NCBI GenBank assembly: GCA_050084985.1 | Contig: JBITNC010000001.1 | Coordinates: 193,378,001-193,442,000 of the forward strand | Reading direction: 5' to 3' | Origin: Nageia nagi | Lineage: Eukaryota > Plantae > Pinophyta | DNA length: 64,000 nt | Part shown: in pieces, positions 1-50,975 of the stretch | Layout: each line of letters opens with the position of its first letter | How positions within the stretch are numbered: the stretch's first letter is position 1 | Position numbers and translations under genes: made by a program | The notes under the pieces: model-generated | Databases searched by the model: none | Told to the model about the DNA's origin: nothing | The model's input: only the letters and a program-made list of their open reading frames with translations

Positions 1-2289
1 GTCATCATTATTAAGTAATAAAAGTGCTGTTACAGTTGGAGTTTAAAGTCAAAGATAGCATGTAACAGATCTAGTTTTTATGCCCAAAAATCTTGAGTAA
101 TAATTGGGATATTTCAGAATTTGCCAATTTTGGTCCACCTTGAGCTATTTTGAATTGACTTGAGCAACATCTTCTAATTTAGCATCGTCTTATGTGCAAT
201 TTGACCTAGGTGGTAACACCTACCTGAATTCAAAATTAGAGTAGTCTATAAAAAGCAAAAGAAAAATCTCATGAAAAACAAGAGGATACATGGAGAAGAT
301 CAATCACTTGACATGCTCTAATGCTAATATCAAGTATAAGATTGAACACGTTCTTCTCAGTATTTTCCTTAAGTTGAATTTGTAGTTATTGAAGTATAAG
401 CTCGCAAGGTGAATATTAGAAACACATAGAATCTTGCAAGACGCATAAATTAAAAGTCACCATGCATTGAAATTCCATGATCTAAAAATGTGGGCTATTT
501 GGATATTGCATTCTTGAACGTGGATGTTCTTTTTCTCACATTCTAGAATATGGGCGTTTTGGGATATGTAGACAAAATAAAGAGCACTGTATTAAAATAT
601 GCACATTTATTATGTCTACAAAATGAAAATAGAGCAATAGCAATATGCAATGTAGCATTTCGCAATTAGGATTATGTCAATTAATAAGAGAAGTTGCAGA
701 GAACACTTATATGGAGGGTGCACCATTAGAGGCTTGTTGGCGGACAACTTGTGATCTTGATGGCAAACCCTTATTGCAACCACATGATGGATGTCGATAA
801 TTTTGGAGATAAATTTGAAAGAGGATAATCATGAAAATGATTTCACATTGGATGATGCTAGAACAGATGCATCGACATTTCGAAATCATTTGGTTCAACT
901 ACAAATGTTGCAGAGGCTTGGGATCAAAACATTTACGATCTATACTTGTGATGCTAGAGTGTTGGGCGTTTTTGGGGTTGGGTATTAGAATGTTGGGCAT
1001 TTTGATGTTGGCTCTTTTTTGACTTGCATTTTGAGCTTTTGATGCTTTAGACATGATGATAGAAGATGATATTGTGCTATGTTGGGATGGAAACCTTTCC
1101 TACCTACCTATGATCACCTGCACACGATCGGGAAGGGGAAAACACCCAACATTTATGTGAGATAGCATAACTTACCTCCTCTTGAAAGGATTGAAACCCC
1201 AAGGTTTGTTCATGTTCCTGTTTAAGTAGCACAATTTTATATATGATCAAATGAATGAACTCACTGGTTTGGATGGAGGTAGAGGCTGTTAACTCACATT
1301 TTTTATAGGGACAAGGTGTTTTTGCGATGTTTGAAAGTTGCTTTGGTTGTGTAAAAAAAGAATGCAAGAAAGATAAAATAAACAAATAAAACAAAGAAAA
1401 AGGCGAGAATAATCTAATACTGGTTAGATCACAAGGCGACTGTCACAACAAAGCATTGCCTAAAATGAGATGTTTTCTAATCGATTAGAAAGTTCTCTTT
1501 CATTCAATCTAGTTCAAGGTGAATGACTATTGTCCAATCAGCTTTGAATCTAAAGCAAGAGGCAAGACCGACTGTCGGTACTTCGCGAATGGGACCGATG
1601 CAATCGAAGAAACTTAGCGTCGAACGTGCTCTTTGGAACCAAGTTTGAATGAAAGCTTCAAATAGCATATAGAAAAAAACAACTTCAGAATACATTTTGT
1701 TTAAAAGTGCGAGATACAAAAGGTAGCAAACTCAAAGTAATTTGAAATGTTTTGAAATATTTGAACAACTATTTTTTCCTATAACTCGAAAGTTTTCAAA
1801 GAAAGAAGTGAAAACATTCAAACTATGAAAGAGAGCCACAAAAGAAAATCCATTCACCACTCCACGTATAACAAAGCCTCTTGAGAAAATAAGTCACCAC
1901 TTTGTACTAGCTTGTAAAAGAGTGACAAAAAAGTTTCCACAATTTTCTTCTTTTACAAAAAATTTGAAATTTTTCTCAAAATTTTCATTCTTGGAAAAGT
2001 TCCAAACTTTCAATCTACATAAAAGTGATCCCATGGGGTCTATTTATAGAATTTCTAGGGTTCCCAAGTGTTGCCCTAATTCTATAAAAAAATATTAAAA
2101 AATTACATATTTTCCTCCTACGATTAAGCTAACTAACTTTTGGTGCTCTACTTGCCAGGTTGACTGATCATGAGAGCAGGGTTAGTCGAGTTTTGGTGCT
2201 CAACTTTCCTAGTTGATTGATTTACAAAATTTTCAAAGATGACAAAACTTACGATGGCGGATTTGTAGTTTGCATATGTGATGCGATGG

Positions 2290-5200
2290 TTTCCTCGAAG
2301 TTGGCACCCATGAAGGTTTATTTGTTTTTGACTTCAGTATTGAGAATTTCCATAATTCCTTCATTCGTCAATAGATACATAGTGATGGTCTTTGAAGTCT
2401 TCTTCATCTCGCTGCACCATACTGCCATATTTGATCTGCTTGCCGGATTTAAGAACATTAATATCTTCAATTTCGAGGTAAGTGGTAATCATCAAATGGA
2501 CCTCATTTATCACCATGGCGTAGTCCTTGTTGCGTCCGTCTTCCTTGATCAGCCTTAGATCAAAGTGCTTCTTTGGTTTCTTCTATCCACTCCTCTTTGA
2601 CCGTTTGAATCCCAGTATTCAAGGAAATCTGCTTTCTGATGTCTTCAACTATCAGGTTAGTAGCTTGTATGTCAACGGTCAACCTTTTCTGTCTGGCCAA
2701 TTCTCTTTTAATCTCCTTGAGCTCTACCTCTTGTGATGTGTTCTCCTCTGTTAGCGCTGCAACATTGGAAACTATTGCATGTTTCGTGCCCAAAGTTCCG
2801 ATTGCCTTACATGGCTCTTCTTGCGTTTCCACTACTAGTGCAAATTCCCCAACAACATTTCTTTTTCTCCCTGCAGCAACAGTGTCGGTGACGATGGAGT
2901 TGTCCTTCATTGAGATGTAAGTGGCTAAACGCTCAAGTTCATTCCCTGAATCTTGATCGGTTTCAAGGTTGGCACGAGATTGAGATGGGTGATATGCTCT
3001 TAAATTTTTCAAGAGTGCTGCCATGTCGAAGTTGTAACCTGGTTCAAGACTAGCAACTGTAGTCACTTGTCTCTTAGGGTTCCCTTGGTGTTCATTCTCT
3101 CTCCTCTTCTTCCTATGGTCTTCATTTTCACCTTCATCCTCCTCATTTCCTCCATTCCCTCCTGATGAGGAAGCTATTCCCTTGGATGCTGAAATCCTTC
3201 TTGGAGCAAGTGGTGGAGGTTTTCTCTGAGGCGAAGGTGTCTTTCTTGATTGTTGAGGTTTAGAAGCCCGTGTAGAGGTGGGTTTTGTTGCTTGCATGGG
3301 TTCTCGCATAGTAGGAGGATTTATGGCTAGTATCTTCTCGATTGATGAATCTAATTCATTTGATTCATTGCCTGAGATATAAGGTATTTCAGGTATCTGG
3401 CTATCTTTTAAGGGCTCTCTCAAGAGGTCTCCTTCATCAATCTCATATTCATCCTCACTGTCATTGGAAGGAGGAGCAGGAGAACTCGGGCAAGAATGAT
3501 ATAATTGTCCATCTTGGGATGGACCTCTGGGAGGGACTTCCACCAGCTTCTTCAAGCGTTTGTAGGGGTGTGAAGTGCTACCAACCTCTTTAGTGCTCTT
3601 TATCTCTTGCGATAATCATTGTATGGTCTGATCAATAGTTTGCCTTGGTTGAACAATGAGTGTTGCATATGGATAAGATTGCCCCTATGTTAACCTCATG
3701 GAAGGTGAAATTGGTGCTGGTTCGTATGGAATCGAGGGATTCTTCTTAAGGATTATCAAAGGATGTATGCTGGCTACTGCATTCTTCTCTTGCATACCTC
3801 TTTTCTTTGTCTTCTTGGTTATTGTCTGCATGAGCTTCTCTTGTGTTGCCAAGTCCCTGTTTATCTTGTTAATTTGCTCTGTATCATTTACATTTCTGTA
3901 CCTTTTGAGCTTCCTTAGGGACTTGTGGGGGTAATTGGTTTGCCAGGTTTTCTTGAAAAATGTGTCGAGTACACCCTCAGGGTCATAGTACTCTATCGCT
4001 TGTTCTACTGTGAAGCCGTAGTATGCTAACTTTGTCTTCATTATTTCGACTTGACGCCAGGACGTGCATTTGTACTCCCCTATGCGGATGGGTAATTTGC
4101 AAGTGATGCCTTTCTTACACCAGACTTTCTTGTGTAGGGACGACAAGTGTCTTCAAAGTTCCATCATGATGAACGGATCACTTGCGTAATGGGGAAGTCT
4201 ATAAGGTGGTTCAATTGACCTGTAGACCCTGATATATGTGGCATCTGTTTCTTCAAGATAAAAATCAACATATCCTCGAAGAGCTTGTACTACCGTCTCT
4301 GATATTCTGGTCATATTGGTGGTCCCCTTTATCTCTTCATATATCTGGCATTCGAATCCATCATTCATCATTTTGAATTTGCCCCACTGGTTTTCCAAAA
4401 GGAATCTAGGGTAACCCCGCCATACTGGCATCTCTGCGTCAAATAGGTACTTGGTATCTGCAATGGCGTATCTTTTGTTCTTGCCATGTAAGAGTAGGAA
4501 CAAGTAAGAGCTCATGTAAAATCTTTTTGTTTCTACAAGTTTGGACATTTGTTGGGCCATGCAATCGCTAATCACCTTACTCCATCTGATGCCTTTGCCT
4601 CTGCTAATCTGATATATGAAACCCACAAACTCCTTTCTAAATCGTTGGTCATTCTCTTGCCCTATAATTCTACATAGCATGCTGATAATGGTAGAGATTG
4701 TAGGATAAAAATCTCTCCTCCCTGGTTGGCTTAAGGTCTTTGCCTTGTAATCTTTGCACTCGTCAACCAACCAATCTCTATTAAGTTCCTCGGCTTTGTC
4801 AGGTTGTTAAAGAATTTGACGAAGTCTATCATACTGAATATGATTCCCTCATTTCTCCAAGTGAAAGCGCTCTCTATTCCTTCCATAGTGAAGTCTAATA
4901 TTTTTGTGGCTTCAGTGTCAAGGAGGACTCTTTCCTTCTTGTTGTAGTATTTGGCTACCTCGAGGCACAATTCTAGAAATGGAGCGGTAAATGGGATCAT
5001 AGAGGCCTCAACGATTTTGGACTGAGCAAGTGTGTCGAGCAACCTTTCATATGGGATCTTGGATCTTTGTCAATGACTTGACGGGTCAGTGTGTGCCCAA
5101 TTTGTGTCTTTGATCTGTCCAAGATTGTTTACTATCACAGTTGTAGGGAAGGCAGCCTTCCCTCTTTTCTCCAAGGTGATCTTGTTAGTCTTCATGAGCC

Positions 5201-5300
5201 TCTCCATCTGGAGCTCCTTGTTTTTGTTAGCAATACTCATCGTTTATGCCTTGTGGAACACAACAGGGTGTTAGGAGTTATATTGGGTATCTTTAGAACG
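2290..5300 (-). pseudogene. Decayed accessory ORF of family X, a distant homologue of the family A LTR ORF
   Basis: ORF fragments 4731-5042, 4153-4770, 3685-4146 and 2560-3555 are collinear with the family A protein: PFTAPFLELCLEVAK vs PFAVPFPDLCSEVAK, IRWSKVISD...KRFYMSSYL vs IRWAGVISD...KRFYMNSYL, GGNGGNEEDEGENED vs GGNGGDEKDEGETEE. Frameshifted; both ends approximate. Confidence 0.8.
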
Positions 5301-6299
5301 ATTTTGGAGTGAAAAAGAGAGTCAAAGTTTTGGCCTATTTTTGGATTTTTGAGAGGCTAAGTGTGGATTTTCGAGAATTTTGAAGTTCATCGGAAGTGGG
5401 AAACAAATGGCAAATAAATTTAGAAGGCTTGTGAACAAGTCTTAGGGAAAAATATCGACTTTTCAATGTTCGAATTAACTCGCTATTTTTTTAGCCCATG
5501 TATTCATTTTTTGACAGGTTTTGGCAGCTTCGAAGTTAGGAAAGATGGGGATGCCAAGTGGGTTTTCAAGCTTCATTTGGGGGAAGTGAATAATAGAAGT
5601 TGCTCTCATATATGAGGTCTATGACTTTGGTATTCACTTCGAAGTTTGGATCTTTCAAAATTTGAGAGTTCTTAAGCCTTGAAAAAGCATTTTTTGTGTT
5701 TTTTTTCACGTTTTTTTGGAAAAGCTTGAAAATGGCCAAAAGATAGGGGGGGTCCGAAATTTGGAAAAATTTTAAAATGTGGATTTGACCTAATGGATGG
5801 ATAGAGGATGAGATTCTAAGGTTTTGAAAAAATTTGAAAAGGTTTATGTTGTGCCTACACAACACCCCCCCAAAATTTTTTGCATTTTGAGGACCCTCAG
5901 GAAACAAAAAAGGGTAGAGGATTGCATGGAAATTTGTCAAGAGGATGCATACCTTTCAGGCTAGTGTTAGGAACATGTTCAATCTGCATTTTCGTGGTAG
6001 TAAGAGCCAAAATCATGCACCTTTCCTCCTGTTGCATGTTTTCCATTGAGTGCTCTTGCACCCCCCTCAAGCCATGCGACCATCCAGCCTTGTCTTTGTC
6101 ATTTGCATCATCAAGTTTAAAAAATATCCTGAGGGCCTCCCATGTTGTACAAACCCCATTTGCATCTCATGTATTGTTTTGTGTCGAAAAATGCAATGGA
6201 AACACCCATTTTTGGCTGGTCACATGTTTTTGAGGGAGTGCTTTTGCACCCACTAGGAAAGGTGCAATTGGGCTGGACATCATCTCACACTTAGCATTT

Positions 6300-6790
6300 T
6301 TTAGTACATTTTGTTGTCGCATGCATTTCAAGGAGTCCTTTTGCACCCCTTCAAAAGGGTGCGACCAAGGTGGCAACTCATACTTAACATTTTTTTGTCA
6401 TTTTCGCATGCTTTGGAGTAAGTCCTTCTGGCACTCACCCAAAACCATGCGACAAGGAGATTCTATACTTAGTCAAATTTTGGAGCCTCAAAGGCTGTCA
6501 CATGCATTTCATGGAGTCCTTTTGGCACTCACCCAAAACCATGCGACCGATAGATTCTATACTTAGTCAAATTTTGGATCTTCAAAGGCTATCGCATGCA
6601 TTTCATTTAGTCAAATTTTGGATCCTCAAAGGCTATCGCATGCATTTCATGGAGTCCTTTTTGCACTCACCCAAAACCATGCAACCGACAGATTCTATAC
6701 TTAGTCAAATTTTGGATCCTCAAAGGCTGTTGCAAGGATCTAGATGAGTCCTTTTGCACTCGTCCAAAAACATGCGACTAGAAGGGAGAA
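6300..6790 (+). repeat. Degenerate tandem repeats (~90-bp unit) rich in ATGCGAC/GTCGCA motifs in the 5' part of family A
   Basis: Recurring GGAGTCCTTTTGCACTCACCCAAAACCATGCGAC...GATTCTATACTTAGTCAAATTTTGGA units. Equivalent arrays lie at ~21110-21500 and ~43760-44100. Confidence 0.8.
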
Positions 6791-7290
6791 AGGAAAATTG
6801 ACTAAGTGTTAAGCCTCATTGACAAGTGGAAGCCCATGCATTGGACCTCTTCCTATGCCTATCCCATGGTGACACATGTCCCACCTGGAAGGCTATAAAA
6901 GGGAAGTCAGCCCCCTTCATTTCAGTTTGCAAATTTGACTAGGAGCAAAGCATGGGAGAACTGAAGATAATGCACCCCTTCTTGGACGTGTGACCAAGGA
7001 CTACTTGAACTTTTTTCAACGTTTTCAGGTCCCAAGCCTTGGGAAGCATGCCAGGACTCAGGTGTAAGGATTTAAGCATGTGCTTTAGGAACCCATCCAA
7101 AAGGGTGCGACAAGGGGCTTAGGCTTCAAACTCAGTGTGAAATTTGGCCAAGTCACCCCCTTTTCGTAGTCGCATCATTTTCACCCTGTCCTTTTTGCAC
7201 ACTCCAAGAAACATGCAACCTTGTTATGGACCTCCTATTTGACCCTTAGGCCAACCATTAAGAAGGTGACACCTGGTAGTTACACTAACC

Positions 7291-7298
7291 TATAAATA
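7291..7298 (+). promoter_or_regulatory. Putative TATA box upstream of the LTR-encoded ORF
   Basis: CTATAAATA about 380 bp before the ATG at 7674. Conserved in copy 2 (20599-20607, -), copy 3 (44606-44613) and family X (13343-13350, -). Confidence 0.5.
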
Positions 7299-7673
7299 TC
7301 CCATCCCTTGAGCATTTTAAACACATAATTCCACAATCACCCCTCTTCTTAGTCGCACCATTTCTCTTGCATACCTAGGCACTCACTCTAAAACGTGCGA
7401 CCAAGGAGGAAAGAAGGATTTACGGATATTGCACATTTAGTTAGCTTTTCATGTCAACCACCGAACCCATTCGGACACTTTCAAGGCAATGCTTGAGGCA
7501 CTCACTCAAAACCATGCGACCTGATCTGGAGTGAGGAATTGTGTCTAAAAAATTGACTAAGTACCCTTGGTCCCAGTCGCATACTTTTCAAGCTGTGCTT
7601 TTGCACTCATCCAAAACTATGTGCCTAGATTGGTTAGACGTCTGGAGTTGAGAAGGGAAGGGTGATTTTCTCC

Positions 7674-10600
7674 ATGGCTTCGAGAATCAAAGTACCCCTA
7701 TTGAAAGCCAGAAAGGCCCAAAGCCAGTTGTTCGAGAGGCATGTGACTCAAAGCCAAATGACTAGGCTTTTGAAGGAAAGTCGGATAGAGTTTTAGCAGA
7801 AGGACAAATCAGAGCTCCCTGAAGCTAAATTCAAGGGGAAACACATCTTCGTTGGTGACACTGATTGGGGGAACTTGGACCCTATTCTAACCTTGGCCTC
7901 CTCGACCTGCATCAGTAAAGAAGACCTGTCAGAGGAACTTATCCACACATGCGGTTTGTTCAATGCCGCTATGATGCCATTTGTAGTACCTTTTCCTGAC
8001 TTGTGTAGTGAAGTGGCCAAGAAGTGTGACTTTAGCAAGAGGATTTTGCAGGACATAGAACGCAATGTGATCATGGACTTTTCCCTTGCCGGAATTGAAG
8101 CAACCTTTGGCTGGAAAAGATATGGGGATGTTTATACATTGGTTCATTCTGAAGAGTTCCATGACTCCACATCCTGACTTGGAGACTATACTCGACCTTG
8201 GCTACTTGAAGAGTTTCAAAACCTTATGATCAGTGCACAGAGAGATGAATTCCTGTCAGTTGTGGCAAAGTTGATCACCCTCTTGTCAAGGGTAACTAGT
8301 CAAGAAAATGATGCTAAGTACTAGAGAGAGTTCATAGATTTTATTGCTGCTATCAATTCAGGGAGACCTATCCGATGGGTTGGGGTAATCAATGATGCCC
8401 TGCGCTATCAATTGTCCTTTTTTGGATCCTCGAAGAGATTCTGTATGAACTTTTATTTGGTGTACCTCTTGCTACATGGCAAAGCCAGATCCAAGGAGCT
8501 GGCTAATGAAAGATACTTGGGTAGAAAAACATCCTTGTGTGGAGGGCATACCAAAAAAGGAGGTGCCAGAACAAGTTCCTATACGTCTATGAGAGGACCG
8601 ATTTTTGGGAGTATGATATCTACAAAGATATCAAAGGAGAATCCGTAGTGAAGAGGATTTTTGATGCAGCTACTGAGGCCATCAACATATATGCAGACTT
8701 CTTTCAGCAGGACACTGATTTTACATATATTAGAGTCTTTGGTTTAGAAGAACAACCCCTGCTCTTGCCTAGATTCGCCATTGATAGGTTGATTCTCAAG
8801 GAGAATGCTAGGCAGCTCTTGTTCCTGAAGAAGAGGGTTTGGAACAAGAAGAATGCCACAATAAATTTGGCTATTACTATATCTGGATATGTGTGCTAGA
8901 CATATGGGTGGAGGCAACGCATATGCGAGAGGAGCTACAATAGTACGGCTTCTTCAGAGAGGCTGCTGCTAAAAATTATGATCCTAAGGGGGTAATTATG
9001 TATTTTTATAATACAACTTTCATAGGCCCATCTCATTTCCACACAAGCCTTTGGGAGATGAGGAGAGGTATAGAAATGTACATGACAGAGGAGAAATTGC
9101 ACGCATAAAGGCTCTTTTGAGCAAGAAGGCGGCTTCCTTTCACGGAGAAAAACATTCTCAAAAGCCTCGAACTACCAAGCTCTGATCTAAAGAGGCCCCC
9201 TTGAGGATCAAGTCTCCTGCTCACACCATGTCCTCACTAAAGAAGACACCCTTGCTTCTTGCAAGGAAAAGACAACAGGCCTCGAGGGAGCCCATCCTGT
9301 GTCCTAGCAAGCGTAGTGTAGTAGAGGTTGATCTTAGAGATGTTGGATATCATGCTCTTGTCCCTGATGTGCTGGATGATGTGGTGAATACAACATGTGG
9401 TAGTGGTTCGTCCACCAAGACAATTCCTTCCAGATCCATCCATTCTCTTGGTCCAAGGGAGAAAGTTCCCCCTTTGCAACCAAGTTCTAGCTCTAGTTCT
9501 CAGAGGTCATCTTCTTCTTTTGATGAAGAAACTGAAGATCCTGACTGTATGATGGAAGATTTTGCAGAAAAATCGGAGAGCTGTAGCGAGAAAGAAGAAG
9601 AAGAAGATGAAGATGATGTTGACAATGCTACCAATATGCTTGAGCCAGAGGACGTAGTTGTAGATGCTTCCGCACTTGATGAAACCGAGATTGAAACCAT
9701 CCTGGATGATGAGATAGTGTATGTTGGAACCTATGATGATGACGTCCAGATAAGTGGTAAGAAATGCGCTAGAGAGGTGGCTGCATCTAAGTCCTCCTGC
9801 TGAACCTAGGAAGAAGTCTCCTTCGCACAAACCCTCTACCAAGAAGAGTCATGAGAGATCTTCCCAACTCTGAAGCAAACGAAGGAGGTGAAGAAGACGA
9901 AGGAGAGATTGAGAAGCAAAAAAAGAAGAGACGGTAGGAAGGGCATCAAGGCAAGGAAATGGCCTTAGTGTAGACCACTCTAGTGAAGGAAGTTAAGAAG
10001 TTAATAAAGGAAGATTGTTGGTTCAAAGGTTTCCCCTGCAACCAGCAACCAAACATCCAGATCTTGACCTGGATGCTTTCTTTAGAACCCTCAGCATGAG
10101 TACGGCTCATGATGAAGATATAGCCTAAAATCTGCATTCAGAAGATGAGGAGGAAGAATTTTCAGATGGAGAGAAGATTCAGAGAGTGGACACTTTTGTC
10201 TCCACCTCTTGAAAGGAGATCTCCATCAGCCATTGCTACTCGAAAGAGAAGCACCCTCAGAGAGCAGAGGACTGTGTCATTGAGACTTTCAAGATGCCAG
10301 TGAAACTAGGGTTGATAGCCAGGGAACACATTATTACTCAGAATGCAGCAGTCATGGAATAGGAAGGCTATGAAGCCAAAAAGGAGGTGAAGAGATTGAA
10401 AAAGGAACTCACGGCTAGCAAAAAGATTATAAATGAGTTCCAGAAAATTAGCACTATCCCTTTGCACCTACAGAAGCAGACTTCCTTCCATGAAGGATGG
10501 GAACTAATGAAGGAGCAGCTTAAGAATGAAGTGATGGAGGCCATCGAGAGATTGTCTTCACAGATTTACAAGCTCCTTACTGAAGGTGTTGAGGTCAGGG

Positions 10601-11168
10601 ATCTCAAAACTCATATTTTAGCACATCATGGCACGTTGGATAGCTACCTTCCCAACATTTCCCATTTGCAGCATATTTTCGCTGATAACCCAACAAAGTT
10701 GGTCTATTGTCATGAGTTCATCTATCATTATGATTGGTTGAACCATGCACTTGAGAAGTGCAACGCTGTCTTGAAAATCATGGCCCCCTTGTGAAAGGAT
10801 GTTGAGGAACAAATGAGTGAATATCTTTATTAGCTCAAGTTCCAAGGAAAGATAACAATGTCAGGAAGAAGGAAGCGGTATTGGCAGAGGCCCAGAACCT
10901 AATCCAGGAGCATCTTGAAGTTGACGATCTCAACTTGCTGAAAGCAGGGTATCCCATTATTCACGAGAGAGGGATGGTCATCTGGAGATACTAGATGCAA
11001 GCTATGATCAAGAAGATTGAGGGATACTTCCGGCAGAATGGAAGCACTGTTGGCATGATCTCTAGGAACGTGCGTAAGACCTTGGCGTTTTTGGGGGAGA
11101 TTGTTGAGTCCCACAGTCTCGCCAGCGAAGAGTGGAACTCCGTCTATGCCGAATCAGATCTGGCCTAG
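7674..11168 (+). pseudogene. Decayed ~1150-aa accessory ORF inside family A copy 1 (helical N-terminal domain, acidic/Ser-rich linker, coiled-coil-like C-terminus)
   Basis: ATG at 7674 (MASRIKVP...), fragments 7875-8177, 8537-8899, 9201-9803 and 10387-10794, ending ...EEWNSVYAESDLA-TAG at 11168. Stops and frameshifts differ between copies, implying one ancestral ORF. No RT, RNase H, integrase or protease motifs. Confidence 0.85.
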
Positions 11169-11579
11169 ATCTGATTCACCCGCATACTTCATTTGCGGTA
11201 TTTTTTTCTGTGTTCAATGCATATGGTTATGTCAGACTTTATTTTGATTTGACTGGTTTAGGGATGAGGTTTTGTTCCCGCCAGATCAAATCTATCAGAC
11301 TCATTTATGACTAACCGATGCAAGGATGAGGTTTTGCTCCTGCTGGTTTAGACGTCAGACCTTTTTCAGATTATTTATTGCATATCTGATTTTTTTTTGT
11401 TTGTTGCATAGATTAGAGGTAGAGTAGATGCATTTCGGTGGTGGCATTTATATTTTGTCAGTTTTAAATGCCATTTACATAGTTTTGTGTGAAGATATAT
11501 GATTTTGTATTGGTATGTGTGTTGCGTGTGTGCACACCATATCAGATTTGATGCCTTTAAGGCATCACTTCTAGTGGCC

Positions 11580-11587
11580 TATTTATA
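11580..11587 (+). promoter_or_regulatory. Putative LTR promoter TATA-like box (TATTTATA) about 1 kb before the 3' end once the nested insertion is removed
   Basis: GGCCTATTTATACCCC recurs at 16316-16323 (-), 49041-49048 and ~50985, with a variant at ~56230. It is positionally equivalent to the canonical CTATAAATA of family X (2041-2049, -). Confidence 0.45.
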
Positions 11588-11658
11588 CCCCACTTGGGCC
11601 ATTTAGAAAAGGGATTTTGGCATACAGAGCTTGCATGAGGAATCTATGCATATGATCT

Positions 11659-12322
11659 TGTGATGTTCCTTTTATTTTTATTTCTTTATTTCTAGCAAAC
11701 CCTCAATATAAAAATGCAGAAATAAATTGCAGCAATAAAATAACTCAGAAATTGCTCATAAAATAACACTAGTATGAGGAGAAATCAGCCAATATCATAT
11801 ATATTAAATATTTCCAAACCAATACAAAGCTGGAATGGACAAATGGAATCCTCACGAAACTAAAAATGCAGATACAAACTTTCCAAACTGAGTGAATCCC
11901 TCCACAAAAGAAATGCCACGAACCACTCACAGATGCCTCTTTTTGTATTTTTGATATTTTAGGGCAATAACACCTTCAATGATATTGCCAAGTCCCCAAC
12001 CATGCACCTCCAATGCACTATGGGAATGAGCAAGACCTGCAATCTCAACTCATGGAAACTCTAGGGTTTCAATATTCAATTCTCATATCACATAACATGC
12101 TCCAAATGAGATGCTCACTTCCTTTTATAGAATGAGGTTCTAATTTGGAGTTGACATCTCCTAACCCTAAAATCACTTAAAGTACCTTATTACAAAAAAA
12201 AAAAGTATAAAACATAAATAAACACAACTTAAGTTATGTCTCCTAGTCACATGAACCCCTTTTCCACTTTTATAATTAAGTGTAGGAGACATTTACAAAA
12301 TATTTATTTTTGGAACATTACA
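11659..12322. mobile_element. Solo LTR (664 bp) nested in family A copy 1
   Basis: TGTGATGTTCC...GGAACATTACA inverted termini and a perfect GATCT TSD. Absent from copies 2 and 3 at the same site. Confidence 0.92.
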
Positions 12323-13469
12323 GATCTTTGTACTATTTTTTGCATTAGACTTTTACATGTAATGAAAGCATCATACACTGGAGTTCTTGCATCCTGAGAT
12401 TGAAGCTATTGAGTTTATTTGTACAATCTTTTGAGCCTTTGCATGTCGTAAGATTCACATTCCATTGCATAGAAAATTGTTGCATAAGGGGTTCTATGCA
12501 TATTTTGCTGTTGAAAACCATTATGAATGTGTTTGTTTAGAGGAATAAAATCATAAAGTTATATTGTCAGGAACATCATTTGTGGGATTATGTATATTTG
12601 AATGGTTCTCTCTATGAACTGTAGGTTGATTATTTTGTGAAAAAGTCTAATCCTTATTTGCATAGTTTGCATGCAAGCAGATATATTCTGATGCTTATAG
12701 CTTGTCTTTATATCATTCGGTTAGGTTCCTACACTTATGGCTTCACTCTATCTTCACCCTTTCCATTGAGTCTTCCATAAAGATCCTATAGCTTCTTGCT
12801 CTTGTTTGCAAGTGATTTGAGTGTATTTGCTATTTGTTGCTCGGGTTGATAGTGAGTGTATTGACCTTAATGAATTTGAAGATGACCTGTCAAGACACTG
12901 TATCCCTGGTGACATCCTCATAGGTCTTTTCCTTTCCTCGCATTCATTTGCACTTATCCTTGTGTCTGTCCCTACATTTGTGATCTTTCTTCACTTTTGT
13001 TCACACTTGCAATCTTTTCTCATTAAGGAAAGGAATCCCGATGGGAGTTTCCCTTGTATACAATTAACAACATGCATCTATGACTTCTGAGCCATCAAGA
13101 CCATATTCCATGTGAACGCTTGAGGTAACCAATCATTTCAGGCGGGAATAAGTAACGCTGTTTCCTCCAAGTCTTGTGCATGTTTTGGGCGAGGAAAGAA
13201 AAACATACCAACAGTTTGGGGCTATTTTGGATCTTGTGAACAAATTTCAAGTTTTTGAGCAAGTTTGTGAGGATTTTGCTCAAAAATGGATGCATGGAGG
13301 CTCAAGGAGAGTGTTATGGGGCAAATGGAAGGCTTAGGGGGGTATTTATAGGGTTTTTGTGCCTTTTGCATGCTCCTTAGTAGGTTTTTGACCTAAAAAG
13401 TGCTCTATGGGCTCATTTTGCACATTTCTTAAGGTTTTGGAGACTTCAAACACTCCATAGGCTTGAAAA

Positions 13470-14760
13470 TCAGTGCCTAACTTTTGGAGGCATATTCTTT
13501 GGCAAAAATTAAAAAGTTCAAAGTCTAAACATCCTTATTTTCTCCTTCTCTACCCAATCAAGTGCAAAAAATCGAATTTTGGTGGGTTTTGGGGCTTTCT
13601 CCTTTCATCTAGGCACCGTTTTTCATTTTTTTGAAGTTTCCAATGGATTGCAAACCTGCGCCTGACTTTTTTTGGTATTTCTAGTGCTCAAATTCAAAAA
13701 TTTGCGGATCTACACATGCATAGAATGCCCTTTTCCATGCAACCATGTGAAAAAATTTGAATTTTTGCAAAATTTTTAATTCCTCTTCATGCTAGTCGCT
13801 GATTTTCATCTCATTGGATTTAGAAAAATTAGCAAACCAGCGCCTAGTATTAGGGGGCACTTCCGTTGCTTAAAATCGAAAAATTGCAAGTTTAAATGTG
13901 CTTATTTTCATGTTTTCCATGTAATTGACCCTTCAAAGTTGGATTTTGAGGCAAATTTTTGCAAGTTCTTGTTCCTAGGCGCTATATTTCACTCCATTGG
14001 ATTTCCAATGGCATGAAAAACTGCGCCTGCCTTTTAGGTGCCCTAAAATTGCTCAAAATCCAATTTTTGCAAGTTTAAATGTGTTCAAAATGGGGTTTTT
14101 CACCTAATGGACCCCTTGGAATCAATTTTTGGTGCATTTTTCACTTATCCCTCCAAGTTAGGTGCTAGAAATCACTCCTATGGATTTGGAAACATTAGCA
14201 AACCTGCGCCTAGCCTTTAGAGGGTCAAAACTTGCTCAATTTCAAAATTTTCAAGACCTAAATGTGCTATAAATCACATTTTACACCCAATGGACCCCTC
14301 AAACTTGAGTTTTGACCAAAACTTATCAAATTTCGTGATTCTAGGTGCTAGATTTCATCCCATTGGATTTCTATAGCTTTGGAAACCTGCGCCTAGCCTT
14401 TAGAGTGATCAAAATAAAAAATTTTGAGACCTAAATGTGTTTGCAATCATGTTTTCCTTGGTCCCAAGCACTTAAACTTGATTTTTGGTCAAAAAACATT
14501 CCATCTTGTCATTCTAGGCGCCATTTTTCATGCCAATGGATTTAAAAACATTCACCTAGCATTCTAGGGGTCTTCACTTGCTCAAAATAAAAAATTTTGA
14601 GCCCTAATGTGCCTTAGAACCTTCATTTCCACTCATTTATGCATTTATATTTGATTTTTGATGCATTTCCATTTTTTCTCCGCTTTCTAGGTACCAAAAT
14701 GCATCTCTATGGATTTCCCATAGGCTTGAAAAATTGCGCCTAGTCTTTGAGTGCCTTAGA
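13470..14760. repeat. Degenerate ~180-bp tandem repeat with TGCGCCTAG/CTAGGCGC motifs in the 5' region of family X
   Basis: The AAACCTGCGCCTAG-like motif recurs at ~13655, 13840, 14022, 14205, 14388 and 14735, usually with nearby CCATTGGATTT and AAATGTG blocks. Confidence 0.75.
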
Positions 14761-15342
14761 CTTGGGACTGATCTTCAACTTCTTTTTTGGTACCTTGTTG
14801 TCCTTACCATCAGGGAGCTTTTTGCTTTTGAGTGCCTTATAGACGCATTTGGCTTGTAGATAAAGACTTCATTATCTGGTTGCAACAATATCTTTTCTTC
14901 TGCTGTTGCACTTTGCTTCTTTGGGATATTTATGCATACTTCTAGCTTGCCCTTTCCCTCTTTTATATTATTGTAACTTGACTCTTTAGTGTTCGAAGGT
15001 TTTAACTCTATGTTGACCTTACCCAAATCTTGTCTCTTACTCACCTGAGGAGAGTTCAGAGATTGCAAACCAGAGTTGCTATGTTTCCTACCACACAGTT
15101 CTATGATTTTAAAACTTTCAGGTGCCTTGATTTTCTCTAAATCGATAAAAATCGATGTATTGCCTAGAGGGTTTGCACTAGCTTGCTTGGAAACCCAACT
15201 CTCCTTCAAATTACTCTTCTTAACAGTATCTTCCATCTTTTCCTCTGGAAAATTCACACCTGCTATACTCTAACCTTTTGCCCTCCTAGCTCTTGTTCGA
15301 GTTGCTATACTAGGAACTTTGTTGTCCTGCACAGACAGGTTC

Positions 15343-18300
15343 TATTGGTATGTTTTTCTTTCCTCACCCAAAACATGCACAAGACTTGGAGGAAACAACG
15401 TTACTTGTTTCCGCCTGAAAGGATTAGTTACCCCAAGTGGTCACATGGAATATGGTTTTGATGGCTCAACAATTAGAGATGCATGTTGTTAATCGTATAC
15501 AAGGGAAATACACACCGGAGATCCTTTTCTTAATAAGGAAAGATTGCAAATGTGAACAGAAGCAAGGAAAGATCACAAATGCAGGGACAAACACAAGGAT
15601 AAATGCAAGGGAATGCGAGGAAAGGAAAAGACCTATGAGGACATCACCAGAGATACAATGTCGTGGCAAGTCATCTTCAGATTTATTAAGGTCGATGCAC
15701 TCACTATCAAGCTGGTTAGCAAATAGCAAATATGCTCAAATCACTACCAGGCGAGAGAAGGAAGCTGTAAGGTCTTTATGGAAGACTCAATGGAAAGGGT
15801 AAAGATGGAGTGAGAGCGTAAGTGCAGTAACCTAACTGAATGATATAAAGATAAGCTGTAGGCCTCAAAATATATCCATTTGTGTGCAAACTATGCAAAG
15901 AAGGATCAAACTCTTTCACAAAATAATCAATATGCAGTTCATAGAAAGAACCATTCAGATATGCATAATCTCACAAATGATGTTCCTCACAGTATAACTT
16001 TATGATTTTATTCATCTAAACAAAACACATTCATAATGATTTTCAATAACAGAACATGCATAGAATCCCTTATGCAGCAATCTTCTATGCAATGGAATGT
16101 GAATCTCATGACATGCAAAGGCTGAAAATGATTGTACAAATAAACTCGATAGCCTCAATCTCAAAATGCAAGAACTCCAATATATGATGCTTTCATTACG
16201 TGCAAAAGTCCAATGCAAAATAGTACAAAGATCATATGCATAAACTCTTCATGTCAAAATTCCTCATGCAAAAATCTTGTATGTCAAAATCCTTTTCTAA
16301 ATGGCCCGAGTGGGGTATAAATAGGCTACTAGAAGTGATGCCCTAAAGGCATCAAATTTGATATGGTGTGCACACATGCAACACACATATCGATACGAAA
16401 TCAAATATCTTCACACAAAACTATGTAAATGGCATCTAAAGCTGACAACATATAAATGCCACTGCCAAAATGCATCTATTCTACCTCTAATCTATGCAAC
16501 AGATAATCATATATGCAATAAATAGTCTGAAAATGTTTGACATCCAAACCGGTGGGAGCAAAACCTTATCCTTGCACCGGTCAAAGTCATAAATGAGTCT
16601 AACAGATTTGATTTGGCGGGAGCAAAACCTCATCCCTACACCAGTCAAATCAAAATAAAGTAAAGTCTGACATACCCAACATAACCATATGCATTTAACA
16701 GAAAAAAAAGATACCATAGATGAAGTTTGCGGGTGAATTAGATCTAGGCCAGATCTAATTCGGCACAGACGGAGTTCCACTTCTCGTTGGTGAGACCATA
16801 GGACTCAACAGTCTCCCCCAGGAATACCAAGGCCTTTCGCATGCCCTTGGAGATCATGCCAACAATGCTGCCATTTTGTCAGAAGTATCCCTCAATCTTC
16901 TTGATCGTAGCTTGCATCTGATATCTCTAGATGACCATCCGCCTCTCGTGAATAATAGGATGCCCTGGCTTTAGTAAGTTGAGATCATCAATCTCAAGAT
17001 GCTCCTGGATTAAATTCTGAGCCTATGCCAACATCGCCTCCTTCCTAACATTATTATCTTCCCCCTGGAACTTGAGCTAATAAAGATATTCACTCATTTG
17101 TTCCTCTAATCTCCTTTCGCAAGGGGATTCTGATCTTTAGGACCATGTTGCACTGTTCAAGTGCTTGGTTCAACCAATCATGATGATAGGTGAACTCATA
17201 GCAGTAGACCAACTTCTCAGGGTTATCGGCATGAATGTACTGTAGATGGGAGACGTTGGGAAGATAACTATTCAACGTACCAAGGTGAGTTTAAATCTGC
17301 ATTTTGAGATTCCTCATCTCAACACCTTCGGCAAGGAGTTTGTAAATCTGTGAAAACAATCTTTCGACGGCCTCCATCACTTCGTTCTTAAGCTGCTCCT
17401 TCATCAATTCCTATCCTTCATTGAAGGAAGTCTGCTTCTGCAAGTGCAAAGGAGTGGTGCTAATTTTCTGGAACTCCTTTATAATCTTTCTGCTGGCCGT
17501 GAGTTCCTTCTTCATTTTCTTTACCTCCTTTTTGGCTTCAGAGCCTTCCTGTTCCATGACTGCAGCGTTTTGGGTGACTATGTTTCCTTGCTATCAACCC
17601 TAGCTTAACTGGCATCTTGAATGTCTCAATGATGCAGTCCTCCACCCATTGAAGATGCTTCTCTTTTGAGTAGCAATGACTAATGGAGATCTCCTTTCGA
17701 AAGGTGGAGACAAAAGTGTCCACCCTTCAAATCTTCTCCCCATTTAAGAGTTCTTCCTCATCCTCAGAACACAGGTCCTGATCTATATCTTCATCATGAG
17801 CTGTACTCATGCTGAAGGCTGTAAGGCAGGCATTCAGCTCAAGATCTGGATGTTCGGTTGCTGGCTGAGAGGGAAACCTTTGAACCAACAATCTTCCTTT
17901 GTCAATTTTCTTGACCTCTTTCGCTAGAGTGGTCTGCACTATGGCCATTTCCTTGCGTTGATGCTCTTCTTGCTTCCTTTTCTTCTTTTTCTCCTTAGTC
18001 TCTCCATCTTCTTCATCTCCTTCGTTACCGCCTATAAATAAGCCCTTGCTCTAGAGTTGGGGAGATTTCTCATGACTCCTCTTGGTAGAGGGTTTGTGCG
18101 AAAAAGGAGACTTCTTCCTATGTTCGGCAGGAGAGGACTTGGATGTAGCCACCTTCTAGCGCACTTCTTAAAAATCTGGACGTCTTCATCATAGGTGCCA
18201 ACGTCCACTATCTCATCTTCTAGGATGGTTTCGACTTCAGTCTCATCAGGTGCTGAAGCACCAATGGCTACATCCTCTTGCTTAGACATATTGGCAGCAT

Positions 18301-21300
18301 TGCCATCATCATCATCTTCTTGTTCTTCCTCGCTACGGCTCTACGATTCTTCTGAAAAATCCTCCACCGTACGGTCAGGATCTTCAGTCTCTTCAACGGA
18401 AGAAGAAGAGGAACACTCAGAACTAGAGCTAAAACTTGGTTGCAAAGGGGGAACTTTCTCCCTTGGAGCAGGAGAATGGGCGGATCTAGATGGAATCGCC
18501 TTAGTAGACAGAACACTGCCACATGCTGTATTCACCACATCGTCTAGCACATCTGGGGGAAGAGTATGATATCCAGCATCTCTAAGATCAACCTCTACTA
18601 CATTGCATTTGCTAGGACCTAAGATGGGCTCCCTTGGGGCCTCATTCTTTTTCCTACAGGAAGCAAAGGTGTCTTCTTTGGTGAGGATGTGGTGTGGAGT
18701 AGGAGACTTGATCTTCAAGGGGACCTCTTTAGATCAGGGCTTGGTAGTCCGAAGCTTTTGAGTAGGTTTTTCTCCTTGAAGTGGAGCCTTCTTCTTGCTC
18801 AAAAGAGCCTTTATGCGTGCAATTTCTCCTCTGTCATGTACATTTCTATACCTCTCCTCATCTCCCAAAGGCTTGTGTGGAAACACGATGGGCTTATGAA
18901 AAGCTGTATTATAAAACACACAATTATCCCTTTAGGATCATAATTCTTAGCAGTAGCATCTTTGAAGAAGTTGTACTGCTGTAGCTCCTCTCGCATATGC
19001 GTTGCCTCCACCCATATGTCTAGCACACATATCCAGATATAGTAATAGGCAAATTTATTGTGGCATTCTTCTTCTTCCAAACCCTCTTCTTCAAGAACAA
19101 GAGTTGCCTGGCATTCTCCTTGAGAATCAACCTGTCACTGGCGAATTTGGGCAAGAGCAGGGGTTGTTCTTTTGAACCAAAGACTAATATATGTAAAATT
19201 GGCGTCCTACAGAAAGAAGTCTGCATGTATGCTGATGGCTTGAGTAGCTGCATCAGAAATCCTCTTCACTACGGATTCTCCTTTGATATCTTTATAGATA
19301 TCATATTGCCAAAAATCGGTCCTCTCATAGACGTATTGGAACTTGTTCTGGCTTTTTTGGTATGCCCTCCACACAGGAACATTTTTCTACTCCAAGTATC
19401 TTTCATTAGCTAGCTCCTTGGATTTGGCTTTGCCATGTAGCAATAGGTACACCAGATAAGAGTTCATATAGAATCTCTTTGAGGATCCGAAAAAGGACAA
19501 TTGATAGTTCAGGGCATCATTGATTACCCCAGCCCATCGGATAGGTCTCCCGGAACTGATAGCAGCAATAAAATCTTTGAACTCTCTCTGGTACTTAGCA
19601 TCATTTTCTTGATTGGTTACCCTTGACAAGAGGGTGATCAACTTTGCCACAACTGGCAGTAATTCATCTCTTTGTGCACTGATCAACCTCTGCCCTTGAA
19701 GGTTTTGAAACTCTTTAAGTAACCAAGGTCGAATATAGTCTCTAGGCCGGGATGTGGAGTCATGGAACTCTTCAGAATGAAACAGTGTATAATCATCCCC
19801 ATATCTTTTCCAGCCAAAGGCTGCTTCAATTCCGGCAGGGGAAATGACCGTGATCACATTGCCTTCTGTGTCCTGTAGAATCCTCTTGCTAAAGTCACAC
19901 TTCTTGGCCACTTCACTGCATAGGTCAGGAAAAGGTATTGCAAATGGTATCATGGTGGCATTGAACAAACCGCATGTGTGGATAAGCTGCTCTGATAAGT
20001 CTTCTTTGCTGATGGAGGATGTGGAGGCCTGTCACCAACGAAGATGTGTTTCCCCTTGAATTTGGCTTCAGGGAGCTTTGATTTTTCCTTCTGCTGAAAC
20101 TCTACCAGACTTTCCTTCAAAAGTCTAGTCATCTGGCTTTTGGTTACACGCCTCTCATACAACTGGCTTTGAACCTTTTTAGCTTTCAATGGGGGTGCTT
20201 TGATGCTCAAAGCCATGGAGAATCCCATTCAACTCCCCTCTCAACTCCAGATGTCTGACCAATCTAGGTGTACAATTTTGGATGCATGCAAAAGCATAGC
20301 TTGAAAAGTGTGCGATTGGGCCTAGGGTTAGTTAGCCAATTTTTTTTTTTGAACACAATTCTTCGCTCCAGATTTGTGCGCATGGTTTTTGATGAGTGCC
20401 TTTAGCACTACCTTGAAAGTATGTGACTAGGTCCCAAGGGTGAACTGAAATGCCTTAGTCAAATGCAACGATTCGAAACCATCCTCTTCCCTTGGTCGCA
20501 CGTTTTAGAGTGAGTGCATAATCATGCATGAGAAATGGTGCGACTAGGAAATGGAGTGATTCTGAAATGGTGTGTTTGAAATGCTCAAGGGGGTGGGATA
20601 TTTATAGGTTTGTGTAATTGCCATTTGTCACTTTCTTATTGGTTCGTCTAAGGGTCAAATAGAAGGCCCACAACAAGGTCGCATGTTTCTTGAGGAGTGC
20701 AAAAGGATAGGATGAAAATGATGCGACTAGGAAAGGGGGTGACTAAGTCAAATTCCAAACTTAGTTCGAAGCCTTAGTCCCTGGTCGCACCCTTTTGGAT
20801 GGGTATCCAAAGCACTCATCTTAATGCTTACGCTTGATTGGGCATGCTTCCCAAGGCCTGGGATCTAAAAAACTTTGAAAAAAGTGCAAGTGGTCCTTGG
20901 TCGCATGTTCAAGAAGGAGTGCCTTTTCTTCTTATCTCCCATGCTTTACCCTAGAAGAACTTGCAAACTGAAATAAGGGGGCTAAATTTCCCTTTATAGC
21001 CCTTCGGATGGGACACGTTTCAATATAGGATAGGCGTAGATGGAGGTCCAATGCACGAGCTTCCACTTGTCAACGAAGTTCAACACTTAGCTAATTTTCT
21101 TCTTACCATTCTAGTTGCATGGTTTTGGATGAGTGCAAAAGGACTCATCAAAATCCTTGCAACAGCCTTTGATGCTCGAAAAAATGACCAAGTGTCCTTC
21201 ACCTTGGTTGCACCCTTTTGAAGGGGTGCAAAAGGACTCTTCACAATGCATGCGATAGCCTTTGGGCATCTCCTTGGTCGCACCGATTCCAATGAGTGCA

Positions 21301-21960
21301 AAAGGACTCACTCCAAAACGTGCAACGGCCAAAAATATGCTAAGTATGAAGTTGCTTGTTGCACCCTTTTGAAGGAGTGCAAAAAGGACTAATCTCAAAT
21401 CATGCGACAAGAAGAAAAATGCTTAGTATAAGTTGCTTGTCACACCCTTTTGGAGAGGTGCAAAAGGACTCCAGAAAATACATGCGACAATTGAATGCAA
21501 AGAAAAAAAATGTATGTATGAGATGATGTTCAACCTGGTCCCAGCTTCCCTAGAGGGTGCAAAAGCACTCCCTCAAAAACATGTGACAAGCTGAAAATGA
21601 GAGTTTTCCTTTGCATTTTCGACAAAAAACAACATATGGGATGTAGATGGGGTTCCTATAACATGGAGGTCTTCAGGATGCCTTCAAATCTAAACATGCA
21701 AACGATAAAAACGGAGAAGGCTGACTAGTCGCATGGTTTGAGAGGGGTGCTAAAGCACTCATTGAAAAACATGCGACATGCTGAAAAATGCATGATTTTG
21801 GTTTCAACTTACCATGAAAATGCAATCTAAACATATTCCCAAGACTAGATTGAAAGATGTGCATCTTCTTTGACAAACTTTTCATGCAATTCCTCTTTTG
21901 TTTCCTTGAGGGTCCTCAAAATGCAAATTTTTTTTGGAGGTGTGTTGTGTAGGCACAACA
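15343..21960 (-). mobile_element. Giant solo-LTR-like element, family A copy 2 (6618 bp)
   Basis: Reverse-complement termini at 21960 (...AGGCACAACA) and 15343 (TATTGGTATGTTTTTC). Perfect TSD GGTTC at 15338-15342 and 21961-21965. Confidence 0.93.
16744..20216 (-). pseudogene. Decayed accessory ORF inside family A copy 2
   Basis: ATG at 20216 (MALSIKAPPLKAKK), fragments 19387-19968, 19020-19253, 18341-18718 and 17090-17275, stop at 16744. Confidence 0.85.
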
Positions 21961-26780: not shown

Positions 26781-27164
26781 TTGCATCCATTGTATATCAT
26801 TCATATAGCTAGAGGGCACTTGTATCTCATTATTGTGTTGTGCGTTTCGTACTTGTGTGTGTGTTGGATCTTGTTGTTTGTATGTACTTGTATTCATTAG
26901 TCGGTGGCACATTAATGTAATAGGGTTTGGATTAAGCATGTATGAGCCAGACATTGGCAATTTGGTATTGTATTCATTGATGTATGCTTGCATATGCTAG
27001 ACATTGGCATTTTGGGTATCTGAATATTTAATGTTAATGCCCTAACCCTAACGTTGCATGCTTGAGAGTTTGTTGTCTTGTATGCGATGCCCTAGACTTG
27101 ATGTTAGGGCTTGATGATCCTGTATAGCTAGTGAAAAAGGAAATTTGATTTTTGGATCATCACA
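26781..27164 (+). mobile_element. 3' fragment of a TGTGA/ATCACA-family LTR in + orientation
   Basis: Ends TTTTTGGATCATCACA at 27164 and is similar to the reverse complement of 27500-27890. Confidence 0.75.
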
Positions 27165-49300: not shown

Positions 49301-50020
49301 CTATGCATGTTTTGTTATTGAAAATCATCATGAGTGTGTTTGTTTAGAGGAATAAAATCATAAAGTTATACTGTGAGGAACATCGTTTGTGGGATTATGC
49401 ATATCTGAATGGTTCTTTCTATGAATTGCATATTGATTATTTTGTGAAAGAGTTTGATCCTTCTTTGAATAGTTTGCATGCAAGTGGATATATTCTGAGG
49501 CCTATAGGTTGTCTCTATATCATTCAGTTAGGTTATTGCACTTACGCCCTCACTCCATCTTTACCCTTTGCATGGAGTCTTCCATAAAGACCCTACAGCT
49601 TCCTGCTCTCGTCTGGTAGTGATTTGAGCATATTTGCTATTTGCTGCCCGGCTTGATAGTGAGTGTATCGACCTTAATGAATCTGAAGATGACCTACCAA
49701 GACACTATATCCCTGATGATGTTCTCATAAATCTTTTCCTTTCTTTGCATTCCCTTGCATTTATCCTTGTGTTTGTCTCTGCATTTGTGATCTTTTTTCA
49801 CTTTCGTTCACATTTGCAATCTTTCCTCATTAAGGAAAGGATCTCATGCGTGTATTTCCCTTGTATAAGGTTAACAACATGCATATTTGATTGCTGAGCC
49901 ATCAAGACCATATTCCATGTGAGCGTTTGGGGTAACCAGTCCTTTTAGGCAGAAACAAGTAACGCTGTTTCCTCCAAGTCTTGTGCATGTTTTGGGTGAG
50001 GAAAGAAAAACATACCAACA
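43301..50020 (+). mobile_element. Giant LTR-like element, family A copy 3 (6720 bp), possibly a 5' LTR
   Basis: Same termini (TATTGTGCCTACACAACACC...CATACCAACA). Flanks ccttc/taaga do not match. Followed by a PBS-like sequence and gag. Confidence 0.9.
45102..48625 (+). pseudogene. Decayed accessory ORF inside family A copy 3 (longest open segments)
   Basis: ATG at 45102; fragments 45303-45965 (220 aa), 46206-46973 (255 aa), 46960-47430 and 48134-48361. Confidence 0.85.
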
Positions 50021-50033
50021 TAAGAGACCATTC

Positions 50034-50050
50034 TAGCACTAGAAGGAGGG
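50034..50050 (+). promoter_or_regulatory. tRNA-Asn-type primer-binding site
   Basis: TAGCACTAGAAGGAGGG differs by two G>A changes from TGGCGCTAGAAGGAGGG, the complement of the recalled plant tRNA-Asn 3' end. It lies 13 nt after the copy 3 end. Confidence 0.7.
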
Positions 50051-50464: not shown

Positions 50465-50975
50465 ATGCAATGGCGACGAGGGACACCTATCAATGTTCCA
50501 GGTACACAACATGCTACGCCGAAGAATGCTTATCAGAATATTATCAAGTTCAAGGCGGATGGCATTAGGACGGTTGAAGAACACAAACCTGTATAAGGAG
50601 GCTCTGGACTGGCTGAACTTAACTCATGAAGATGTGGCTTGCAGGCTTTTCTCACTCTCATTAGATGATCAAGCCCTCGATTGGTACATGAGCTTACCCC
50701 ATGGTTCTATAACTTCGTGGGATTAGTTGCAGACAACCTTTTTCAGTCAATTCAAGATGCCTGCAAACCCGCATGAGTTACACAATCACTTTGCTTCTAT
50801 GAAGCAACAACCTGGAGAACCTGTTCGCACATTCAATGCTAGATTTCAGAAAGCTTACTCCAGACTAGTGCCCCCAGGTAATGTTAATCAAGATATAGCT
50901 TTGTAGTTATACTTTGGGGCCCTTAACCCTTTCATCTTGGTTTTTGCCCGAAAGGAGGGAAACATCACTGCTTTA
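50465..50975 (+). pseudogene. Retrotransposon gag fragment (non-chromovirus Tat/Athila-like Gypsy)
   Basis: HEDVACRLFSLSLDDQALDWYMSLPHGSITSWD*LQTTFFSQF...MKQQPGEPVRTFNARFQKAY has the Retrotrans_gag signature. Truncated at a junction with LTR sequence. Confidence 0.85.

Follow-up and report, generated by a model that had tools for sequence, protein, structure and literature searches.

The question raised by this locus is whether a plant retrotransposon can carry an accessory gene inside its own long terminal repeat (LTR). In a 64,000-nucleotide stretch of the Nageia nagi genome (contig JBITNC010000001.1, positions 193,378,001 to 193,442,000; hereafter "the window"), copies of three related repeat lineages occur: families A and X and subfamily B, which share an open reading frame (ORF) and a common end. 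We focused on X, the diverged relative. With moderate confidence, we read it as a degenerate, truncated member of a high-copy family of plant retrotransposons, likely with a VANC/PMD-like anti-silencing accessory gene in a giant U3. This reading builds on the layout of the locus, protein homology, purifying selection, family-specific motif pairs, and 6.6-kb units of family A flanked by target site duplications (TSDs).

Layout and limits of the family X copy

On the minus strand, family X runs from a repeat array through a TATA box, a broken ORF of ~1,030 codons, and a second TATA box (TATAAATA) to a terminal CCAACA, with 969 bp between the last two. The original prediction had given the same order, with a final spacing of ~960 bp. 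The features of X, which include a candidate polypurine tract (PPT), are as follows:

1080..1215, minus: X 3' terminus, ending in CCAACA at 1085-1080; the last ~100 nt are homologous to A and B ends
1080..2040, minus: putative X R-U5 region, from its place after the second TATA box and a spacing as in A2 and A3
2041..2048, minus: second X TATA box, TATAAATA, the putative LTR promoter, from its sequence
2067..2079, minus: 13-nt promoter motif common to X, A2, A3, and B2 by exact match, and found in A1 by a relaxed pattern
2105..2119, minus: PPT-like purine tract followed by TGT, missing at the equivalent place in A1, A2, A3, and B2
2150..5240, minus: X accessory ORF, broken by stops and frameshifts, with its ATG at 5240 and an approximate 3' end (~2150)
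13343..13350, minus: first X TATA box, TATAAATA, 735 bp upstream of the ATG after removal of A1
13560..14765, minus: X repeat array of ~183-bp units, with one inverted motif pair (TAGGCGC..GCGCCTA, ~40 bp apart) per unit
14765..14775, no strand: X 5' truncation junction against the unrelated low-copy ORF Y, from read depth and comparison with a second X copy

The layout thus stands across the interval originally proposed, 1080 to 14770, but neither an uninterrupted span nor 14770 as the element end does. A nested family A copy, A1, makes up 7.4 kb of the interval, and X is a 6,314-bp, 5'-truncated piece once A1 is subtracted. In three of four read sets, contigs join 5820-5835 directly to 13214 or 13223, representing the empty site. 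Read depth marked X as high-copy from ~1080 to ~14850 in all four runs, with single figures in the bins just outside. The second X copy, L001, was 80.7% identical to the window copy over 3,313 nt; it was the sole confirmed X copy among at least 587 candidates of a metagenome scan, and further copies may exist. Position 14765 is a truncation junction and not the X terminus, because a search of the 5' side there found neither a TG/CA end nor a matching TSD and because L001 runs on differently, extending at least 434 bp beyond the equivalent position. The X 5' end lies outside L001 as well. Relative to A1, the window copy also lacks ~280 nt of C-terminal coding sequence near 2567. Just before the X start codon (L001 2785-2816; window 5241-5275), a branch-point/acceptor-like sequence seen by eye suggests that the 5' leader holds an intron.

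The neighboring ORF Y is broken, lies on the minus strand (14775-15342 and 21966-23368, split by A2), and is unrelated to X. Its TG start, at 23368, precedes the ORF by ~340 bp; reads cover its 3' part at low depth, and Pfam gave no match. Possibly it represents another ORF-bearing LTR family. We rejected a single 8.3-kb unit joining X and ORF Y up to 23368 because Y has a low copy number and the sequence of L001 goes on differently. We take a GATAT match around 1073 and 23368 as probable chance.

Gene and LTR in families A, B, and X

The placement of the gene can be read most directly from family A. The A and B copies in the window, with associated features, are as follows:

5847..13213, plus: A1, nested within the leader of X, a TG..CA unit with TSD GTTTA/GTTTG and an insertion of its own
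15343..21960, minus: A2, 6,618-bp TG..CA unit with a perfect TSD, GGTTC, and no terminal direct repeat
43301..50020, plus: A3, 6,720-bp unit without a TSD but with the same ends as A1 and A2, the putative 5' LTR of a truncated element
50034..50050, plus: tract resembling a primer-binding site, separated from the A3 end by 13 nt, with reads that cover and bridge it
50541..50957, plus: retrotransposon gag fragment downstream of A3 (PF03732, E = 1.2e-14)
50965..52084, plus: B1, 3' fragment from second promoter to CCAACA, by self-comparison
52085..57320, plus: B2, unit of subfamily B with a truncated 5' side and with the same ORF and end, by self-comparison

A1 and A2 start with TGTTG, end in CCAACA or a one-base variant, measure 6.6 to 6.7 kb excluding a secondary insertion, and have both TG..CA termini and 5-bp TSDs. 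When the unit ends were compared, no repeat was found between the two ends of A1 or of A2. It is well supported that the gene of family A lies inside a 6.6-kb LTR, because two TG..CA units of this size are flanked by TSDs and because A3 is followed by the primer-site-like tract and gag. We take this tract to match tRNA-Asn; a 13-nt spacer (50021-50033) separates it from the A end, where 0 to 5 nt is usual. Under a 31-letter rule, one piece among 32 listed (with 1,719 further pieces beyond these) bridged the junction of A3 and the primer site, and a second among the pieces listed crossed it with 18 letters. The junction recurs in other contigs at ~87-90% identity. Depth at the A end fell from 2,100-5,800 in the last full bin to 3-35 just after, and the ends of A and B mostly ran into unrelated flanks (8-16 contigs per run, agreement 0.41-0.46).

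In family X, the gene is probably also inside a giant LTR, as judged by homology to A and B, because the promoter motif, the TATA spacing, and the last ~100 nt are common to all of them. The 13-nt motif has four exact matches in the window, all just upstream of a second TATA box (X, A2, A3, and B2). From this box to the end, X measures 969 bp, compared to 981 and 980 bp in A2 and A3. The last ~100 nt of X align with those of A3, A1, and B2 at z = 4.7, 7.4, and 11.2, respectively, so that the X promoter and U5 end are both homologous to those of A. The last 1.1 kb of X had no copy within the 2.2 kb upstream of the L001 ORF (z = 0.9). The gene-in-LTR design of the original prediction is thus well supported for A by its TSD-flanked units and extends to X by inference. 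We infer that a Tat-like Ty3/gypsy element has the A/X unit as its LTR.

Several further observations concern the A and B copies and their surroundings. The A1 insertion (~11644-12322, ~680 bp) is high-copy and found in neither A2 nor A3. The first 18 nt of the A units (5847-5864, 21943-21960, and 43301-43318) form a short inverted repeat, TGTTGTG..CACAACA. The A3 left flank at 43296-43300 (CCTTC) is the reverse complement of the B2 right flank at 57321-57325 (GAAGG), possibly by chance. A3 was inserted into a gypsy gag-protease fragment (42700-43300), which adjoins one copy of another LTR-like family of ~1.2-1.4 kb with many copies (26781-30770, 34938-36154, 40478-41690, and 58800-60883). The window is repeat-rich, as befits a plant with a large genome, with short host exon-like pieces at 32076-32126, 38118-38297, and 62640-62860; from its translation, one of these is presumably glycogen/starch phosphorylase-like.

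Protein homology, lineages, and selection

The X ORF product comprises an N-terminal folded domain, an acidic/proline-rich linker, and a helical C-terminal region; in L001, the ORF is open for 758 codons. A collinear homologous protein, as originally proposed, was borne out by alignments that cover the core and both ends, the X product being collinear with those of A and B. X and A3 share 35% identity over 422 residues (E = 2e-75), the N-terminal piece of X shares 30% over 153 residues, and the C-terminal region shares 30% over 97 residues (E = 5e-10). The accompanying claim of little obvious DNA similarity also holds in self-BLAST, where the sole match of X to A or B of at least 60 nt was a ~80-nt purine-rich piece (74%); other noncoding homology is short and lies at the second promoter and in the last ~100 nt. 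X and A repeats showed no DNA similarity to each other (z = 0.1 and -0.1).

Three lineages in 64 kb were recovered in the tree, with the X clade and the A+B clade each at SH-aLRT 99. This tree was made by a quick method from 37 rows, many half-length (34 of 149 members plus three window pieces). The profile of the protein family reached 522 clusters (50% identity) at E ≤ 0.001, and a further homolog search added three matches; in one profile comparison, a member was common to both sides, which were therefore not independent. Named relatives of the ORF were limited to Taxus chinensis proteins (3 of the 30 entries looked up), which suggests a conifer-like host.

The X accessory ORF evolved under purifying selection. 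For the X core versus L001, the ratio of nonsynonymous to synonymous substitution rates (dN/dS) was 0.14 (0.09-0.21), with 0.19 and 0.32 in the flanking parts. Values were 0.23-0.42 among A copies and 0.06-0.09 between A and B; between X and A, synonymous sites were at or near saturation. Simulated neutral controls (four mutation spectra, 300 runs each) gave medians of 0.53-0.86 and minima of 0.34-0.54. The X core and A-B values lie well below these, and the A1-A2 value (0.42) is not clearly below. The description as old and maintained by selection therefore fits the protein, given dN/dS, synonymous saturation, and the 522 clusters; the selection seen concerns the protein and not the position of its gene. 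Nor does it follow that the design is "not a one-off capture," because one ancient move of the LTR boundary, passed down to all three of X, A, and B, suffices to explain the common layout.

Predicted fold and family-specific motif pairs

Two AlphaFold runs on the N-terminal region of L001 gave confident models, with predicted local distance difference test (pLDDT) scores of 85.9 and 91.8. In both runs, the VANC21-DNA structure (9lnk_A) ranked first among 48,161 solved chains and was the only match with Z ≥ 5. Run 1 aligned 236 residues at Z = 7.2 and a root mean square deviation (rmsd) of 4.6 (next Z, 2.6); run 2 aligned 230 of 288 residues at Z = 7.4 and rmsd 4.3 (next Z, 3.4). PDB sequence searches gave no match at E ≤ 0.001.

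The repeats upstream of the gene carry motif pairs specific to each family. X repeats recur with a period of 182-192 bp (window 13560-14765; L001 456-1928), which is near the nucleosome repeat length. Across 13 X units, the mean majority was 0.96 in motif columns versus 0.70 elsewhere; since units were anchored on the first motif, this comparison is partly circular, and the second motif alone serves as an independent check. Upstream repeats of A have their own, different inverted motif pair, recurring every ~90-100 bp or multiples thereof. X motifs were absent from three A upstream regions (0 matches), as were A motifs from X and L001 (0 matches). At 36167-37152, an array of 105-bp and 26-bp tandem repeats contains 9 of the 47 A-type motifs in the window and could have arisen as a satellite from upstream repeats like those of A.

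Taking the structural models together with the motif arrays, we tentatively predict that the protein may bind its own motif pairs and counter silencing, a proposal we hold with somewhat less confidence than the overall reading. Its weak points are these. The VANC21 match has Z < 8, rmsd > 4, and 7-8% identity. Foldseek found no match at E ≤ 0.001 among PDB and viral models, a result with which any fold is still possible. No Pfam family matched above the cutoff, PMD (PF10536) and DUF1985 (PF09331) included; over 149 members, 25 of the 38 families were listed and included neither domain, the remainder being single weak matches. Atlas searches from two homologs pointed to DUF1985 and PMD at 0.81-0.85 (<0.9), which are leads only. 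Finally, the observed/expected CpG ratio in X and A was 0.33-0.69, mostly like the 0.38 of the window, and old X and A copies showed no clear relief from CpG decay.

The same layout could house a protein with another role, such as LTR transcriptional activation, nuclear import, or integration targeting. We consider this doubtful, though it survives better than the other alternatives: the fold match is moderate, extra ORFs of retrotransposons are of unknown function in the literature, and old copies bear no methylation footprint. However, among solved structures only an anti-silencing DNA binder has a closely similar fold, and the family-specific motif arrays parallel the VANC system.

Alternative placements of the gene

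Other observations weigh against a gene-bearing LTR. In the window and L001, we found no locus of any family with two long LTRs flanking gag-pol and none at which pol is linked to one of A, B, and X. Sequence after the A end is present at <1% of end depth, far beyond published genome-wide solo:intact ratios of 2.8-5.5 (10.64898/2026.07.23.736688, PMC9364684, in the portions available). The primer-site-like tract, 13 nt from the A end, is beyond the 0-5 bp searched in REXdb. X retains its 3' CA end; its 5' end, with any TSD and primer site, is missing. Its last kilobase matches the X upstream region of the window itself, weakly (z = 3.4, score 41). Read depth, which is not copy number, proved a blunt test, the depth ratio of last kilobase to ORF being 2.0-4.4 in A itself. 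Lastly, the PPT-like tract and TGT stand just upstream of the second X promoter, where such tracts have a background of 0.36 per kb.

An improbable alternative has X as a conventional element: the repeats, promoter, and ORF would occupy its 3' internal region, followed by a PPT (2119-2110) and a short LTR, ~1,030 bp in length. On this view, A and B would have derived their giant LTR by moving the PPT upstream. The tract and TGT are rightly placed, with ~5% chance in the 150-nt gap at the background density, but they are missing in A and B though the adjoining promoter motif is common to them, and the resulting U3 would measure only ~60 bp. In Tat/Retand elements, repeats and extra ORFs usually lie between pol and the 3' LTR; in the available part of the REXdb report, forward extra ORFs lie 5' in 23% and 3' in 26% of 27 TatII elements (PMC6317226). 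Depth ratios of the X last kilobase to ORF in the four read sets were 0.48, 1.16, 1.15, and 1.82. The last value, 1.8 times deeper, fits a short LTR; however, the last kilobase is not clearly deeper than the ORF because three runs are at 1.16 or less, and depth does not step down at 2048.

That the TG..CA units are self-standing mobile units using a borrowed integrase, with gag and primer site belonging to a host element, is very unlikely: shared internal sequence at <1% of end depth, the unusual 13-nt spacer, and the solo-like state of two of the three complete A units in the window speak for it, but the termini, 5-bp TSDs, and TATA-R-U5-like layout are LTR features, the primer-site junction recurs in other contigs at the identity given above, and a search of the N-terminal 459 residues revealed neither a transposase nor an integrase fold.

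Proposed mechanism and comparison with known systems

If the gene does lie in the LTR, as we favor, U3 would contain the repeats, the first promoter, and the gene, and genomic RNA would start at the second promoter. The gene would then be present once, at the 3' end of the RNA, and reverse transcription would copy it into both LTRs. Such very long LTRs should readily recombine, leaving most copies as solo units that retain promoter, gene, and end signals together. The protein, putatively dimeric through its helical C terminus, would bind the inverted motif pairs, as VANC does on the repeats of its own transposons. The simplest origin would be one upstream shift of the PPT, either before or after X split from A/B, drawing the usual Tat-type 3' region (repeats and extra ORF) into U3.

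Extra ORFs, internal repeats, and LTRs of up to ~5 kb are described for Tat-clade elements in the accessible portions of several reports (PMC7264820, PMC6317226, PMC4408406, PMC11963269, PMC5418596), to which the following comparisons are likewise limited. Like TatII, TatIII, Ogre, and Retand, the elements here have 5-bp TSDs, an extra ORF with a domain, a coiled coil, and its own promoter, family-specific tandem repeats, and putative very long LTRs. In contrast, the extra ORFs of that clade are internal and mostly antisense, whereas the present ORF reads in sense and, in A, falls within a TSD-flanked unit of 6.6 kb, which exceeds the 6,000-bp LTR length limit of REXdb (PMC6317226). The putative placement in Tat/TatII draws on the 5-bp TSD and forward extra ORF. 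TatII elements in REXdb use a tRNA-Asn primer in 15% of cases (listed primer types cover 59% of elements), and Athila is also tRNA-Asn primed, at 12% (PMC6317226). TatII/III are reported from gymnosperms only (PMC13477047). The similar rates of forward TatII extra ORFs at both ends could reflect a gene-in-LTR layout that went unrecognized.

VANC proteins bind short motifs that are multiplied in tandem repeats and differ between families (PMC5735166). Our elements resemble the VANC system of VANDAL (PMC5735166; 9lnk) in predicted N-terminal fold and in tandem-repeat motifs that differ between related families. They differ in being retrotransposons and not DNA transposons, in the 7-8% identity, in having no Pfam DUF1985 match, in the inverted pairing of motifs, and in that binding is predicted. 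PMD and the DUF1985 domain of VANC are reported to be structurally alike (bioRxiv 2024.09.27.615353). Through the Atlas lead, our proteins recall PMD-A of gypsy elements and the host MAIN/MAIL PMD-C, which have a helical domain reported to resemble DUF1985 in structure (PMC5418596; bioRxiv 2024.09.27.615353); unlike them, ours have no PF10536 match, and theirs come from angiosperms, with no LTR-internal position described in the available text.

Among relatives searched for in viral contigs, none was found by protein (57 candidates, 0 confirmed) or end motif, and in prokaryote genomes all seven of seven motif matches were chance, only the motif itself aligning. Retroviruses also have genes in U3, such as MMTV sag, and HIV nef overlaps with it. 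As in those viruses, coding sequence would be copied into both LTRs; their LTRs measure ~0.6-1.3 kb, unlike the present case, in which U3 is proposed to contain the whole of a ~3.4-kb gene together with an upstream promoter of its own and a repeat array. Our literature searches, with subscription journals largely outside their coverage, found no paper that places a gene within an LTR of a plant element.

Significance

The feature is real; its kind, with extra ORFs and long LTRs, is already known, and the variant is new. Also new here are the predicted N-terminal fold nearest VANC21 and the family-specific inverted motif pairs in X and A. A bolder proposal, which we regard as speculative and rather unlikely, is that a long-lived gymnosperm retrotransposon lineage moved a whole VANC-like anti-silencing system, gene and target motif array, into an LTR of 6.6 to 7 kb or more. 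Solo LTRs would then be self-contained cassettes able to hold off silencing of themselves and, in trans, of their family, with protein and motifs codiverging between X and A, missed through the length limits of LTR finders.

What the extra ORFs of plant LTR retrotransposons do is treated as an open question in the accessible literature (PMC7264820, PMC11963269). This locus gives a direct test, with two diverged proteins, two motif pairs, and a predicted fold like that of an anti-silencing factor. Should the gene reside in the LTR, the formation of solo LTRs, which is generally scored as removal, would preserve it intact at thousands of sites, and some intact gene copies would lie near host genes. 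LTRs longer than 6 kb would bias both solo:intact counts and annotation in giant conifer genomes.

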